A DNA stretch of 19,238 nt from a virus: the UHGV virus genome UHGV-1568686; one strand, 5' to 3'. The notes beneath the pieces are model-generated. The model saw only the letters and a list, made by a program, of their open reading frames with translations, was not told where the DNA came from and made no database searches. Shown piece by piece: positions 2,129 to 15,265 of the stretch; within the stretch, counting starts at the first letter, position 1, and every line of letters begins with the position of its first letter. A program made the position numbers and the translations under genes.

Positions 2129-2239
2129 AAGTAATCCTCCCACAATGATACCAACTTGGTTCTAGAACCAATTTAACACCATTTATTTTGATGTCAAGTT
2201 GGTGCTATTGTTTAGCGAACATCTTTACGTTGAGGTCAT
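2129..2239. promoter_or_regulatory. Divergent promoter/operator region between the arc-like and Mnt-like genes (Pant/Pmnt analogue)
   Basis: 110-bp gap between divergent start codons. Consensus TTGACA on the minus strand at 2192-2197 with a weak -10 (TAAATT/AAATTG) about 16-17 bp downstream. Repeated ACCAA/TTGGT half-sites: ACCAAcTTGGT at 2150-2160 and CAAGTTGGT at 2195-2203. Confidence 0.55.
2156..2171. promoter_or_regulatory. Perfect 16-bp palindrome TTGGTTCTAGAACCAA, candidate RHH (Arc/Mnt-type) operator
   Basis: Exact dyad symmetry verified base by base. It sits just downstream of the putative -10 of the minus-strand promoter, about 28 bp upstream of the arc start. Confidence 0.6.
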
Positions 2240-2560
2240 ATGAGCAAGTTCCCTAGTCATGAAATGGATAGGTTCAATATCAGGCTTCCTGCAGGAATGC
2301 GGGATGCTATAGCTGAACGAGCCAAACGTAACGGCAGATCAATGAACTCAGAGATTGTTCAGATACTGGAAGATGCCTTGAATGCAGAAAATACACTCGG
2401 GGAAATAGCAGATAAAATCAACAGCGTCTCGGTTCCGCTAAATGTTGATGCGCTAGTTCAACTTCAAGCCCAGGTTATCGCCATGCAAAAAGAAATACAG
2501 GAAAAGTTCAGAGAGCAGAACGAAAAGTTGAGAGAACTGCTAAACAAAAAACCCACCTGA
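2240..2560 (+). CDS. Second Mnt-like RHH repressor with an extended coiled-coil-like C-terminus (106 aa)
   Basis: RFNIRLPAGMRDAIAERAKRNGRSMNSEIVQILEDAL is nearly identical in pattern to the P22 Mnt N-terminal RHH (HFNFRMP...ANGRSMNSELLQIVQDAL). Occupies the P22 mnt position, divergent from arc. GAGG 4 nt before the ATG. Confidence 0.75.
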   Translation: MSKFPSHEMDRFNIRLPAGMRDAIAERAKRNGRSMNSEIVQILEDALNAENTLGEIADKINSVSVPLNVDALVQLQAQVIAMQKEIQEKFREQNEKLRELLNKKPT

Positions 2561-2587
2561 CGGTGGGTTAATTTTTGCCTTTTTTGG
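2550..2587 (+). terminator. Intrinsic terminator after the Mnt-like gene
   Basis: AACCCACC (2550-2557), loop TGAC, GGTGGGTT (2562-2569), followed by AATTTTTGCCTTTTTT. The stop codon lies in the loop. Confidence 0.65.
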
Positions 2588-2658
2588 ACCATATTGACTA
2601 CTCATAAAATGAGATCAATATTTAATCGCCCAATAACGGGTGTATGTTGAGGTATATC

Positions 2659-2838
2659 ATGGCGAAAAAACCAGGTGAAAACACAGGAAAAAACGGCGGA
2701 ATATACCAAGAAGTTGGCCCACGCGGCGGTAAGAAAGACAATTTTGCCACCGTCAAGGACAACGAAAGGCTTCCACCAACAACAAAGCCAGGTCATGGCT
2801 GGGTATTGGATAAGCGAACTCCAGACAGCAAAAAGTAA
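2659..2838 (+). CDS. YjzC-like small protein of unknown function (59 aa)
   Basis: MAKKPGENTGKNGGIYQEVGPRGGKK...ERLPPTTKPGHGWVL fits the G-x-Y ... ERxPP ... W pattern I associate with the YjzC-like family. GAGG Shine-Dalgarno 7 nt upstream of ATG 2659. Possible promoter TTGACT at 2594-2599. Confidence 0.6.
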   Translation: MAKKPGENTGKNGGIYQEVGPRGGKKDNFATVKDNERLPPTTKPGHGWVLDKRTPDSKK

Positions 2839-2844
2839 TAATCA

Positions 2845-2867
2845 AGCCGGTTCACTCCGGCTTTTTG
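2845..2867. terminator. Bidirectional terminator hairpin between convergent genes
   Basis: AGCCGG (2845-2850), loop TTCACT, CCGGCT (2857-2862), followed by TTTTTG on the plus strand. The stop codon of the minus-strand gene lies in the loop. Confidence 0.6.
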
Positions 2868-3217
2868 ATATGTCGCTCGCAGAACTCAACAAGCCTGCTC
2901 ATTAAGTAGCAGTAAGTCTCGTTGGCTCTTCCTGGTTCAACATCAACACCTACCCTTGAGCAGATATCGAATGCCATGTGAGCACACTCATGGGCAATAG
3001 TAGATAGTTTGCCATTGAACACGCCTATCACATGCAAAACACCATTTTCGCTGCTCATTGTATGAGACGCTCCGTTGGCATCCGAGTCCTGCACGTCCAC
3101 GCCAAGTTTTTGATGCAGGCGTTGCCATTCTGGAAAGTCTCTGCAAAACACAATCGTACCGCTCTCAAAGAGCGGGACTAGCATCTTTGGTACTTTTCCA
3201 ATGTTAACTTTTTTCAT
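2852..3217 (-). CDS. Minimal ImmA/IrrE-like (peptidase M78/DUF955-type) HExxH zinc metallopeptidase candidate (121 aa from ATG at 3217)
   Basis: Translation contains LSTIAHECAHMAFD, matching the (F)TIAHE(L)GH signature of ImmA/IrrE proteases, with a downstream acidic residue (NETYCY). AGGA Shine-Dalgarno upstream of ATG 3217. Family assignment is by motif only. Confidence 0.55.
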   Translation of the reverse strand: MKKVNIGKVPKMLVPLFESGTIVFCRDFPEWQRLHQKLGVDVQDSDANGASHTMSSENGVLHVIGVFNGKLSTIAHECAHMAFDICSRVGVDVEPGRANETYCYLMSRLVEFCERHIKKPE

Positions 3218-3247
3218 GGTATCCTGCTCAAAACTAAGGAGGTTGGT

Positions 3248-3637
3248 GTGAAGCAATTTCTTACTGCTATGTTCTTATTCATATCTTTTGGGGCTACAGC
3301 AGAGTGCTGGGTCGTTGGAGATATGCGCGGAATAAGCTATTCAGAACGAAATAATTTCCATCCGGAAGAAGATGGTTTTAGTGGAACATTCATCATTAAG
3401 ACAAACGGTGAAGATGCCAGCATCACATATTCTGGGACAGATGCGGGCGGCATGGCTTACAAAGCATTGTCTAAAAACTCCATCATAGGAATCGGCGCGA
3501 ATGGCGAAACTCAACGCGTTATCGACTCATGGGTAATACATCCTACTGGAACAGTTTTAATGTCAAAAACCATTTCCGGTTATGGAAATATGGATTCAAC
3601 CAAAGCTTTTGTTGGAAAAGTAAAAAGAAAATGTTAG
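3248..3637 (+). CDS. Small secreted/periplasmic protein of unknown function (129 aa, GTG start)
   Basis: AAGGAGG Shine-Dalgarno 5 nt before GTG 3248. N-terminus MKQFLTAMFLFISFGATA-ECW is a classical Sec signal peptide with an AxA cleavage site. The mature protein has one Cys near each end (ECW...KRKC). Appears AT-rich relative to the structural genes (by eye, not computed). Confidence 0.7.
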   Translation: MKQFLTAMFLFISFGATAECWVVGDMRGISYSERNNFHPEEDGFSGTFIIKTNGEDASITYSGTDAGGMAYKALSKNSIIGIGANGETQRVIDSWVIHPTGTVLMSKTISGYGNMDSTKAFVGKVKRKC

Positions 3638-3661
3638 CGATTGAATCCAATTTCCCATACG

Positions 3662-5503
3662 TTACTGCTGTGTTGCCTCAGTAGCAAGCAGCGGCCTGAT
3701 GGCATTTGCAGCGTTACTCAACGCTCTTTCATAGGCTGGCGTTCCAGCTTTAGTGTTTGCCAGACGTAAGAGAGCATTCCTTGCTGCTTTGGACTCATAC
3801 AAGCGCATCATTGCACCAAAACCAGCCTCAAGCCCCATTGATACGCCAAGGGTCGCAGTTGCGCCAATCGTCCTTATCCTGTTGGCTTGCGATTGCCCCG
3901 TCTGAGTTACTACATTTGCGGTGTCTGACCTTGCTGTTTGCTGTAGAACTTCATGAAGAGCATCAAGCTCTTTCATGTGCTTTCCAGAAAAAATAGTGTT
4001 GTAAATTTCACCGCCTGACTGAGATTTCAGCTTATTAACTTCAGTGATGAACTTGGCTGGAGAGTCACCGGCCTTTTCCGCTATTTTGCTGACGTAAGCT
4101 GCACGCATAGCATCTTTCCCTTTATCATCCAATGCGCTCCAGATTCGTTTCACGTCAGATGGTTTTCTGCTTAATACAACAGTATTTATAAGTTCAGGAC
4201 TGGCTTCACTGCTTGCCTTGTTGAGCTTGTTAGCAATGTTTTTATTAAGCACCTTATTATAAACGTTTGCATAATCGGAATTTGCTTTAAGGTATTTTGC
4301 TGCGTCTGACGCACCGAGGTTTTTTGCAACTGCGTTACGAAGGTCTTTTGACATTGCATTCTCTACCATATTGGTAGCTGCTTTTGCCTGGTTGGGGAAG
4401 ACCATAGCATCTCCCTGAACATTAGATCTAAATGCTGTTCTGTGCTGACGCAAGAGATCAAACGTAACATCCAAATCAGTTGCAGGGTTTGCTAATTCTT
4501 CACGCAGGTTACGCAAGGATGTAAGCAGGCTTTGATTGGCAGACGTCCCAAGCCGTTCCTGTCTTGCGATCGCTGTATTCAGAGCATTCATGGTATTTGT
4601 GGTATCAACTGCGGCATTACCCATTTTATTGGTGACGTCATTGATAACAGCGCCAGCGGCATCCTTCCGCCCCCTTAACGTGGTGGTAAGAGATTTCACC
4701 ACATCATCAGGGTTGTACTCACCAAAACGGTCAAAATAATTGCTTACCAGCTTACTACGCGTTGCATATTGCTCAGCTCGCTTTGAGCCTGTCCCGAGCA
4801 AAGCCCCCTCAGCATCCTGAGTAAGTCCGCGAGTGAAAGCATTTTTCGGCGGGATAACATCAGATGTCATTGGTGTCACGCCCATCGATTCTGATGTGGC
4901 AATTTTCTTCGCCACTTCTGGCGCAATATCACCTTTTATAGCCGTTATTCCACGCCCTATTCCCTTTGCTGCTGCGGAAAGAACACCCTGAGCGGCAAGG
5001 TTAACTCCGGCATTTTTAGCTGCATTTTGTGCGAAATCGCCTTTCTGATTTGCGGCCTCTGCCAGTGATCCAATAGCCATGCTTCCTGCCGTTCCAACTC
5101 CTGGAACTAAATACCCACCAATTGTTTCACCGGCTTGTGCGTATGGGTCTGTCGGTCTGTCTACTGGACGATAAACATCATCCAAAACCTTGGGTCCACC
5201 AAGCCCCTGACTGATTGCATTAATCAGACTTGCGCCGCCCTGCAATACGTCAAATGGTATGTTTACCAGACCACGACCAGCCTGCTCTGCAATTTGCCCT
5301 GCACTTTGACCACCTGTGAGCCAATCGCCAGCTTGTTGCATCAATGATGGTTCTTCACGTGCTGGTTCATTATTGGCCTGATTAACTGTTTGTTGCTGAA
5401 CAGCCTGACCAGCAAAATACTCATCAATGGCGGTGCCAATATCTTCCGTGCTCGTACCATCAGGGAAGGTAAATGTCTTACCGTTTGCAGTTACTTTCAT
5501 CAT
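3662..5503 (-). CDS. Ejection (injection) protein, P22 gp16 homologue (613 aa)
   Basis: N-terminus [29 protein letters not shown] matches my recollection of P22 gp16. Last gene of the gp7-gp20-gp16 ejection triad. Confidence 0.85.
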
Positions 5504-13138: not shown

Positions 13139-15265
13139 TTAACTCGGCATTAAGTCTGCCGGAGACTGTGGTGGTGACTGGAATTGCTGTTGTTGTGACT
13201 CGGCGACATCTTTCAGAAGGCGTATTGCCTCCATCACTGCTTTGTCATCGATGTTTCTGGCTTGGGCCAGTTTATAGACAGTGTTTGCCTGACTCTCCAT
13301 CGCATCCTGCTGGGCAGTAAATGCTTTGATTTGAGTTTGAGCAGTTTCGTTAGTTGCTTTTTGCGCTTCTGCCTGCGCTGCTACCATTTGCGCCTGAGCG
13401 AGAACCATTTCAGGATTTGGCTGGCTTTGTGCTGCCATTTGCGCCTGTTGAACAATCTGCTGCTCTTTCTCATTGCGTGGTTTTGCAATACCAGATATCA
13501 GCAGTTGGTTTCGGTTGTACTCTTTGAAGTCATCAAGGCCTTCGCCATCGATATTGTCCAGAATAATACCCTGAATTGCCGGGCGCATTGGGTCTGTTGG
13601 GAGCATAGAGCTAAGGACATTTGTCAGTACAGAAACCGTTGCATCACGTCGTGCTGTGTAGCTTGGTCCAACATCAACCGTCACATCGTATCGACCGACA
13701 GAAAGGTCATTTAACGCAACAACAGCCCCTGTTTGCCTGTCAACAACCTGTGCGCTCAGGACAGCGATATCATCACTTCCATCTTCGTTAACGATGCGCA
13801 CTTCACGTTCTGAACCGTACACTTCACGCGCCATTGACAGCCATACTTCACCAGCGCGTTTAAGACTTTTCGCCATATTGTCCAGATAGATAAACGAAGC
13901 CATATCTGCTCTGTTCATCAAGTTGTTAACCGTTTCCTGAGCAATATTACTTGGCATCTGCTGCATGGCCTGACTGCCGCCTGTAACCTCCTGAATATCA
14001 GCACTGGTTTGCTGTAGTAATGCAGCCAATGCCTGATTCATAACCGCAGGCTGTGTATATCCTGCCGGGGTAGCTCCAGCGATGATGTTGCCAGATTTAT
14101 CTCTCACTTCGCGCAACGGCAAGAACGCTGGTCGTTTCTTGTTGCGAGCCTCCCAGTGCTTCTCAAGTCCACGAATTTGCTCCATGCCAACTATAGGGAT
14201 CTGACCTGGGTCTTGCGCTGCAGTATCAGCCAGCATTGATACCTGAAGGTTATACAAACGCTGTGGATCCATTGCTTTTGCAATATGTCCTTCGACACGC
14301 TCAATGTCATCAATGAACCAGCGTTTTCCATAAACCGGGATGAGGGGGATATGCTCACCAGGAATACGTCGAGGTTTCTCAAGGAAACCATCACCATCCA
14401 CTACGGATACATACACACGACGGCGCTTCACTGAGCGCCTTGCCACTTCCTGAAATCCAGCTATTGCCAGTTCATCTTCAATATCTTCGACCTGATCACT
14501 GTCGTATGTTGCAATCTCTCCAGTGATTGGATGTCGATAACTGATGACGTCAACAGACTCTTTACGAACTTCGTAATACTTCGCTATGTAAATAACATCT
14601 GCATCAAACCAGCCATATTCCCAACTGGTCATAGACGTTACATCCAGAGAAGCAGGAGGTTTCTTTCCGTATTCAGCCTCATATTTTTCAGGTGACAACG
14701 AATACATGCAGAACGCCCACAACGCGTCAGATTTGTCGTACTTCTTAGCGTCAGGGTCAAACCACACAGAGCGCGACGGGTCGTATATTGGTTCAATAGC
14801 AATGCGCTGACGATCGTCCATGGGGTCGTATTCATTGACCAGCATAGACGTCAAACGGAAGCAACCGAAACCACCAGTAGCAGCGTCGTCAAATGCATTA
14901 TCGCAAGCCTCACCGCCATCAGTTTCTTCGTAGTCAGCACGGAACAGACCATTTAATTTATTGGCTAACTCTTCGCTTGCCTCTCTGTCACCAGGACGAA
15001 ACTTAACGGTGATTCTGTTATTGCGGTATTCTGCAATGATGCGGTTAAGTTCAGTTGCTACCTTATTGATTTCAAACTTAGGATACTTCTCGAACTGCTC
15101 ATCAAGCTTAGTTCCAGCCGCCGTTGCTCCTTCCCATTGACCTCCGGGGACACGAGCAAACCTCGTAGCTTCAATGCACTTTTCGCGCACTTCCTGCTGT
15201 GGAGAATAGGCGCGGTCAAACCTGAGCATGATCCGCTCATGTTTTTTCTCTAATGTCTCTGCCAT
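13139..15265 (-). CDS. Portal protein, Sf6 gp3/P22 gp1-type (708 aa from ATG at 15265; the track ORF extends to 15337)
   Basis: Starts MAETLEKKHERIMLRFD, analogous to the P22 portal N-terminus (...LESILSRFD). Conserved AGFQEVARRSVKRRRVYVSVV and GEHIPLIPVYG segments. Start lies 2 nt after the terminase large-subunit stop. Confidence 0.9.
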   Translation of the reverse strand: MAETLEKKHERIMLRFDRAYSPQQEVREKCIEATRFARVPGGQWEGATAAGTKLDEQFEKYPKFEINKVATELNRIIAEYRNNRITVKFRPGDREASEELANKLNGLFRADYEETDGGEACDNAFDDAATGGFGCFRLTSMLVNEYDPMDDRQRIAIEPIYDPSRSVWFDPDAKKYDKSDALWAFCMYSLSPEKYEAEYGKKPPASLDVTSMTSWEYGWFDADVIYIAKYYEVRKESVDVISYRHPITGEIATYDSDQVEDIEDELAIAGFQEVARRSVKRRRVYVSVVDGDGFLEKPRRIPGEHIPLIPVYGKRWFIDDIERVEGHIAKAMDPQRLYNLQVSMLADTAAQDPGQIPIVGMEQIRGLEKHWEARNKKRPAFLPLREVRDKSGNIIAGATPAGYTQPAVMNQALAALLQQTSADIQEVTGGSQAMQQMPSNIAQETVNNLMNRADMASFIYLDNMAKSLKRAGEVWLSMAREVYGSEREVRIVNEDGSDDIAVLSAQVVDRQTGAVVALNDLSVGRYDVTVDVGPSYTARRDATVSVLTNVLSSMLPTDPMRPAIQGIILDNIDGEGLDDFKEYNRNQLLISGIAKPRNEKEQQIVQQAQMAAQSQPNPEMVLAQAQMVAAQAEAQKATNETAQTQIKAFTAQQDAMESQANTVYKLAQARNIDDKAVMEAIRLLKDVAESQQQQFQSPPQSPADLMPS

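Follow-up and report, generated by a model that had tools for sequence, protein, structure and literature searches.

A head-to-head gene pair at a probable joint between two exchangeable modules in the ant moron of a P22-like phage

The UHGV virus genome UHGV-1568686, a 19,238-nt stretch called the window here, is that of a P22-like phage (Lederbergvirus), with its best full-length megablast match to Salmonella phage ST-35 (97.3%). Its ant-type genes (439-1965) and arc (1955-2143), all on the minus strand, are followed by mnt (2308-2559), by orf59a, also called hkcD (2659..2838, plus strand), by the minus-strand gene hkcC (2852..3217) and by a plus-strand gene in what we refer to as the sieA slot (3248..3637). 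Beyond the slot lies the minus-strand gene for a homologue of the DNA-injection protein gp16 (gene 16, 3662..5503), which is the last gene of the late operon before the slot; the late operon continues on the other side. Gene 16 and the slot gene are convergent, with a gap of 24 nt (3638-3661), and the slot gene, located between the homologues of genes 16 and 9 and oriented against the late operon, shares its linker, ribosome-binding site and GTG with sieA. Rfam and tRNA scans of the window found nothing. Villafane et al. (2008) named the stretch from gene 16 to gene 9 the ‘ant moron’, listed sieA, hkcC and 59a among its genes in P22, with the functions of hkcC and 59a given as unknown, and described transcription from P_late as continuing through it into the tailspike gene (PMC2629481).

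The two divergent start codons can be read directly from the DNA: on the minus strand, an ORF of 121 codons (3217..2852) starts with the ATG seen as CAT at 3215-3217, and on the plus strand, GTG at 3248 opens one of 129 codons (3248..3637). The distance of about 30 bp given in the original prediction is borne out, since a linker of 30 nt (3218..3247) lies between them, a conserved module junction that holds the ribosome-binding sites of both genes. These are the Shine-Dalgarno sequence AAGGAGGT of the slot gene (3236..3243, plus strand), which lies four nt before the GTG and is identical in P22 and Emek, and AGGA of hkcC (complement of 3222..3225), four nt before the ATG. Both had been predicted, along with the stronger claim that they take up the whole linker; this part does not hold, because a candidate extended −10 element, TGgTATCCT (3217-3225), falls within it as well. 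The spacing is no product of chance, because the same 33-nt string (3218-3250, GGTATCCTGnnCAAAACTAAGGAGGTTGGTGTG) is found in at least 120 viral contigs and in P22 and Emek, and the hkcB-hkcC gap of HK620 is also 30 nt.

We observed that this short string joins otherwise unrelated sequences. Among the matches listed, an ORF is open from the linker GTG at 124 of 124 sites, and at least 13 unrelated ORF families (62-164 aa) begin there, including SieA, HkcB-like proteins, the beta-barrel protein of the window and small proteins with one to three transmembrane segments. Sequence inspection revealed an N-terminal hydrophobic segment in most of these families, and a strict 19-residue hydropathy window was positive in 9 of the 13. 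To the left of the linker, the 124 listed sites carry a full hkcC (36), an hkcC remnant of 2-13 codons (22) or unrelated DNA (66), and the slot families combine freely with these states, 10 of the 13 occurring both with and without hkcC. The string TGGTATCCTG is retained irrespective of hkcC presence, at 147 of 153 sites in a set anchored on the right half of the linker only, and variation within the linker is concentrated at the triplet 3227-3229. The linker has the look of a module boundary or of a docking sequence for cassettes of the exclusion type; more speculatively, the 33-nt string could be a universal docking site for them with an embedded extended −10 promoter. A sigma-E reading of the linker TCAAA was rejected because those positions vary.

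Several further features of the linker surroundings were seen. Phages that share the 33 nt can have unrelated flanks on both sides. In phages without hkcC (TCT-class loci such as Emek, L014 and L021), ACTCC(A/C) lies exactly 19 nt before TATCCT; it is common to otherwise unrelated upstream sequences and is poor as a sigma-70 −35 element, and the hkcC class has TTTCCA at the same 19-nt distance. A metagenomic P22-like contig (L144, 1964-2885) has a slot with two opposite-strand genes, one HkcB-like and one for a ClpP-family protease (PF00574), and its hkcC homologue lies 115 nt away rather than 30.

The mosaic structure is equally evident in the window itself. Positions 2600-3250, which cover mnt-distal DNA, orf59a, the counterpart of t_mnt and the sequence that leads up to the start of sieA, are 97.5% identical to P22, positions 3217-3898, with orf129 and the gene 16 homologue, are 96.9% identical to phage Emek, and the two stretches of similarity overlap in the linker only. 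The exact combination of this slot gene with hkcC is found in phage ST-35 and in 19 complete E. coli genomes. The junction as such has already been described in P22-like phages, and what is new here is the combination of cassettes.

The 30-nt figure depends on where the plus-strand gene starts, and NCBI PGAP places the start of the CDS in NZ_CP115343 at ATG 3269, which would widen the gap to 51 nt and make the shorter distance an annotation artefact. We regard this as quite improbable, given the strong Shine-Dalgarno sequence four nt before GTG 3248, the need for the GTG start to supply the Lys-containing n-region of the signal peptide, and a break in homology immediately 3′ of the GTG, directly after which the slot gene departs from sieA. 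The GTG start is also favored because 13 unrelated cassettes, at all 124 listed linker sites, open in frame from that codon.

The slot gene encodes a 129-aa protein of the Emek orf129 family that matches phrog_2651 (E 2.9e-61) and has homologues down to 46% identity. A signal peptide covers roughly residues 1-18 (MKQFLTAMFLFISFGATA|EC), in line with the earlier ‘periplasmic’ label for a secreted product; this N-terminal segment is the only signal-like one, the remainder is all-beta, and within the family Cys20 is invariant and Cys129 nearly so. The gene thus encodes a secreted small beta-barrel that is unrelated to SieA, although its ribosome-binding site and GTG are those of sieA. SieA proteins of types A-C have 3-4 TM helices and an FxRYPxEAxxFNK motif (PMC10883804), a description that the slot protein does not fit. 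PADLOC returned no match for the three proteins tested, the slot protein among them. The annotation of the Emek gene as ‘Similar to Sf6 gene 38’ was not reproduced by tblastn with the slot protein, which, searched against 50,697 phage records, matched Emek and ST-35 only. On the DNA, the 24 nt between the slot gene and gene 16 (3638-3661) contain no terminator, so a slot transcript would be complementary to the 3′ end of the gene 16 message; along the plus strand, a terminator-like hairpin is first met some 100 nt into gene 16 (3733-3750).

On the other side of the linker, the 121-aa HkcC is 99% identical to the annotated hkcC product of HK620 and to a P22 ORF that is unannotated in two deposited records (AF527608 and AB426868). 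Its entire length aligns with phrog_1365 (E 1.7e-39), homologues are found at identities as low as 44%, and its family profile gathers 555 clusters (at 50% identity) with E<=1e-3, most members being about 120 aa long. Pairwise dN is 0.15-0.37 with dS saturated, which leaves a dN/dS ratio computable for a minority of pairs but indicates that hkcC is under strong purifying selection. Both ORFs of the head-to-head pair are thus real genes.

Only four columns are invariant in an alignment of 84 HkcC sequences with 23-74% identity to the window protein, namely H76, E77, H80 and E100. Specifically, H76-E77-C-A-H80 forms an HExxH motif, and the invariant Glu follows 20 residues downstream. In an AF2 model (pLDDT 88) with the secondary-structure order b-b-a-b-b-a-a, the motif is predicted to lie on helix 71-88, after a small sheet, and E100 on helix 100-116, an arrangement of an HExxH helix with a Glu ligand on the next helix that characterizes zincins of the gluzincin type (clan MA). 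HkcC had no match in Pfam at E<=1 and none in NCBIfam. Weak matches to SprT-like (PF10263) were found for 14 of the 84 relatives (best E 1e-4) and not for the window protein, and the matches of HkcC to zincins among PDB sequences were all sub-threshold. The original prediction had called this protein an ImmA-like protease, an assignment we do not retain. The HExxH motif is present but is common to all zincins and therefore not diagnostic of ImmA/IrrE, and Peptidase_M78 (PF06114, ImmA/IrrE) matches neither the window protein nor any of the 84 relatives at E<=0.1, so that membership is rejected at the family level by both Pfam and NCBIfam. Nor does hkcC adjoin a gene for an ImmR/Xre-type HTH repressor; its conserved neighbor is orf59a, whose product has no HTH, and its relatives sit within tail or terminase gene clusters. 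HkcC is predicted to have no signal peptide or TM segment, and the supportable label is ‘zincin-like small putative metallopeptidase’.

The neighbor, orf59a, encodes a 59-aa basic Gly/Pro-rich protein (phrog_3202) with only a weak YjzC-like match and is the conserved convergent partner of hkcC, at a distance of 13 nt. A hairpin between the two genes (2844..2863), corresponding to t_mnt of P22 and the bidirectional tORF59A of HK620, has the hkcC stop codon (2852-2854) in its loop and a T-run on the orf59a strand only, and its pairing is preserved with differing sequences in distant hkcC/orf59a loci. Upstream of orf59a, a promoter-like TTGACT-17-AATATT (2594-2622, plus strand) is directly followed by a leader hairpin, CGCCCAATAACGGGTG (2627-2642), and both recur upstream of orf59a homologues at six other loci. 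Compensatory changes in the hairpin are found among distant homologues, and its role may be that of a leader stem or of an operator. A strong bidirectional terminator-like hairpin at the mnt end (2550-2569, 8 bp, T-runs on both strands) isolates orf59a as its own transcription unit.

The two convergent genes also travel together. Among the 120 linker-bearing contigs listed, 29 carry the two genes together and 4 carry hkcC alone, orf59a alone is found in none, and the remaining 87 lack both. Prophages of a different morphotype, from Klebsiella, Rosenbergiella, Xenorhabdus, Proteus and Pasteurellaceae, also harbor the pair (loci L003, L004, L006, L131-L133, L145 and L146, together with window positions 2594-3217). 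Judged by this distribution, hkcC and orf59a appear to be a strictly co-occurring convergent cassette that passes between podoviruses of the P22 type and siphovirus prophages, the latter in several Enterobacterales and one Pasteurellaceae genome. The orf129 subfamily (phage L, ST64T and epsilon34) is without an orf59a partner. The HK620 hkcD (L009, 2880-3059) has an in-frame stop (IYQ*VGP) next to an intact hkcC, which can therefore persist after loss of its partner. In one metagenomic contig (L006, 1330-1968) the cassette adjoins a 212-aa gene matching PF18894 (PhageMetallopep), a second predicted phage metallopeptidase.

We then considered how the head-to-head genes might be transcribed. The original prediction held that, for want of room upstream, promoters would have to lie inside the opposing gene, and for the slot gene this agrees with what we found. 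By alignment to the AF527608 feature at 13861..13891, the putative equivalent of P22 P_sieA is TTGGTA-19 nt-TTTCAT at 3187..3217 on the plus strand (TTGGTACTTTTCCAATGTTAACTTTTTTCAT), within the first ten codons of hkcC, with the complement of the hkcC start codon as the end of its −10. Its resemblance to a sigma-70 site is poor, with 4/6 and 4/6 positions, a 19-nt spacer and no A at position 2 of the −10, and P_sieA itself was termed ‘putative’ by Leavitt et al. (PMC10883804). The same study reports that sieA is expressed from the prophage and that exclusion is given by sieA together with the 85 bp (P22) or 106 bp (HS1) that precede it; the P22 test fragment was inserted co-directionally with the gal operon, where read-through is possible (PMC10883804). 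As TGgTATCCT (3217..3225, plus strand), recovered in a relaxed scan, is a reasonable extended −10 within the linker, the core of the slot promoter may instead lie in the linker itself. Either candidate overlaps the translation start of hkcC on the DNA.

For hkcC, the prediction offered a choice between a promoter inside the slot gene and read-through from the late operon. A standard scan gave no sigma-70-like minus-strand site in 2200-3900, and no sigma-70-like site of at least 9/12 adjoins the pair on either strand. A relaxed scan gave a single minus-strand candidate inside the slot cassette, TTGACA-15-TAGGAT at 3566..3540, from which hkcC could be driven independently, with both genes on at the same time. 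Its hexamers match at 10 of 12 positions, but its 15-nt spacer is poor, it lies 323 nt upstream, it was absent from the standard scan, and it belongs to one cassette type only, yet hkcC is found beside at least 10 different cassettes; we consider it an unlikely source of hkcC expression. As hkcC has exchangeable cassettes upstream of it, the gene has no conserved promoter, which fits the prediction. Relatives of hkcC point the same way as the structural or late genes around them at 13 of 13 genome loci (11 in a search with a narrower alignment). The same holds between the tail-tube and tape-measure genes in Klebsiella and Rosenbergiella prophages, between Rz and dec in phage L, and in P22-like phages. 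Since the family is always on the late or structural-gene strand where examined, we infer that read-through of the antiterminated late transcript, the second of the predicted routes, is the most likely source of hkcC expression. To reach hkcC, a late transcript has to pass the slot gene in antisense direction and then the slot-gene promoter, and gene order and orientation fit a noncontiguous operon in which an opposite-strand gene is embedded in the late operon. Reciprocal expression of the slot gene and hkcC is plausible. In P22, RNA-seq reads from sieA are reported to increase after induction, with the strand not stated (PMC10883804), and if these reads are sense they argue against reciprocity.

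Taken together, we think the pair is likely to be the joint of two independently exchangeable modules in a P22-type ant moron, inside the late operon. The first module, on the plus strand, would be a cassette in the P22 sieA slot, whose promoter region, ribosome-binding site and GTG stay constant as the coding sequence is swapped. By analogy with sieA, it would be transcribed in the prophage from a weak promoter overlapping the linker and the hkcC start, either the annotated TTGGTA-19-TTTCAT or the extended −10 TGgTATCCT. The second module, on the minus strand, would be hkcC, with no promoter of its own and translated from the gp23-antiterminated late transcript, which would run out of gene 16, antisense through the slot gene, and then on across the hairpin and immI in the direction of the tailspike gene. 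Such a layout would amount to a ‘noncontiguous operon’, a concept said to go back to Saenz-Lahoya and colleagues in 2019, in which expression of both genes follows the prophage or lytic state. Expression of slot gene and hkcC would probably be partly reciprocal through transcriptional interference, with the state itself not decided by the pair.

The original prediction went further and likened the arrangement to a built-in lysogeny/lysis toggle. Such a bistable or antisense switch, with an ImmA-type protease acting on the repressor, would draw on the overlapping divergent initiation regions, the antisense course of late transcription, the HExxH motif in HkcC and an Arc/Mnt repressor gene about 300 bp away. 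We find it very unlikely. Among the matches listed, hkcC is missing or truncated in about 70% of the phages with the same linker and slot, so it is dispensable in most relatives, and the slot gene and hkcC are not evolutionarily linked; the toggle is unsupported because the two reassort freely, the slot cassettes being interchangeable, and neither product is regulator-like. The Peptidase_M78/ImmA match it calls for is absent from the window protein and its 84 relatives, hkcC relatives occur in siphovirus tail clusters with no repressor nearby, and P22 immunity genetics (c2, mnt, arc and ant) require neither gene, as judged from PMC2629481 and established knowledge.

Could HkcC instead be a lytic counter-measure that removes the exclusion protein of the slot, as in a Tai/Ati-like immune/anti-immune pair? 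The architecture is that of phi80 taiEcA/atiEcA (PMC11364771), and a putative protease is indeed encoded on the late strand. However, HkcC has no signal peptide or TM segment and the slot protein is secreted, and the free reassortment includes a gp38-like cassette that has hkcC beside it in 7 cases, a remnant in 3 and no hkcC in 14; this makes a dedicated pair most improbable.

The preferred reading, two modules meeting at the linker, leaves the constant partner of hkcC to be accounted for, and here the linkage suggests, as a hypothesis only, a prophage-expressed small protein paired with a late-expressed protease. In a doubtful but definite form of this idea, hkcC and orf59a would be a mobile unit in which the late mini-metalloprotease HkcC neutralizes the prophage-expressed Orf59a, or the state it imposes, when the phage turns lytic. 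It would build on orf59a being self-contained, with its own conserved sigma-70 promoter, leader hairpin and terminator. If true, a noncontiguous operon would here hold an immune/anti-immune pair that shuttles between the late regions of podoviruses and siphoviruses, and reciprocal expression would apply to hkcC and orf59a, not to hkcC and the slot gene.

As an instance of a layout already described for the ant moron of P22 and HK620, the junction adds little alone. Its wider interest lies in the sieA position as a constant promoter/RBS/GTG socket for at least 13 unrelated small, mostly envelope-targeted proteins, whose catalogue would supply ready candidates for superinfection exclusion directed at the neighboring ejection proteins. 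It lies also in hkcC, unannotated in two P22 records, as a large family whose sole invariant residues are those of a putative metalloprotease active site, and in the strict hkcC-orf59a linkage across phage types, from which a testable defense/counter-defense hypothesis follows.

The closest known systems are the sieA/hkcC junction of P22 and the hkcB/hkcC junction of HK620 (AF527608, NC_002730), which lie at the same position between genes 16 and 9 and share the 30-nt linker, the ribosome-binding sites and the GTG. Their hkcC is 99% identical to that of the window, orf59a and the hairpin likewise follow downstream, and the P22-pbi record has sieA at the place, strand and start of the plus-strand ORF; the slot content differs, being a secreted beta-barrel of the Emek orf129 family in the window and the inner-membrane SieA or HkcB, with three TM segments, in P22 and HK620. 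HkcC resembles the gluzincins (SprT-like, minigluzincins and ImmA/IrrE M78) in the invariant HExxH and the Glu 20 residues downstream on the next predicted helix, but matches none of them significantly by HMM or fold, and unlike ImmA genes, hkcC has no neighboring HTH repressor gene. In lambda bor and other late-region morons, a prophage-expressed gene for an envelope protein lies antisense in the late region. The window slot is like bor in that its envelope-protein gene is embedded in this way, and unlike it in offering many cassettes a constant promoter/RBS/start docking site, which overlaps a late-gene start. In BTP1, the prophage-expressed RNA STnc6030 is antisense to the 3′ end of a gene 16 homologue and causes exclusion (Owen et al. 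2020, PMC7067206). A slot transcript would similarly enter gene 16 antisense, a likeness that is positional only; STnc6030 was rejected as a homologue of the slot, as BTP1 has neither the linker nor an ant moron, its gene 16 and tailspike gene being only 155 nt apart. In phi80, taiEcA/atiEcA form a noncontiguous operon in which Q expression lowered the antisense immune protein (PMC11364771). The window differs from it in that slot gene and hkcC reassort freely; what the two would have in common is an opposite-strand, prophage-expressed gene that interrupts a Q/gp23-dependent late operon beside a gene carried on the late transcript only.
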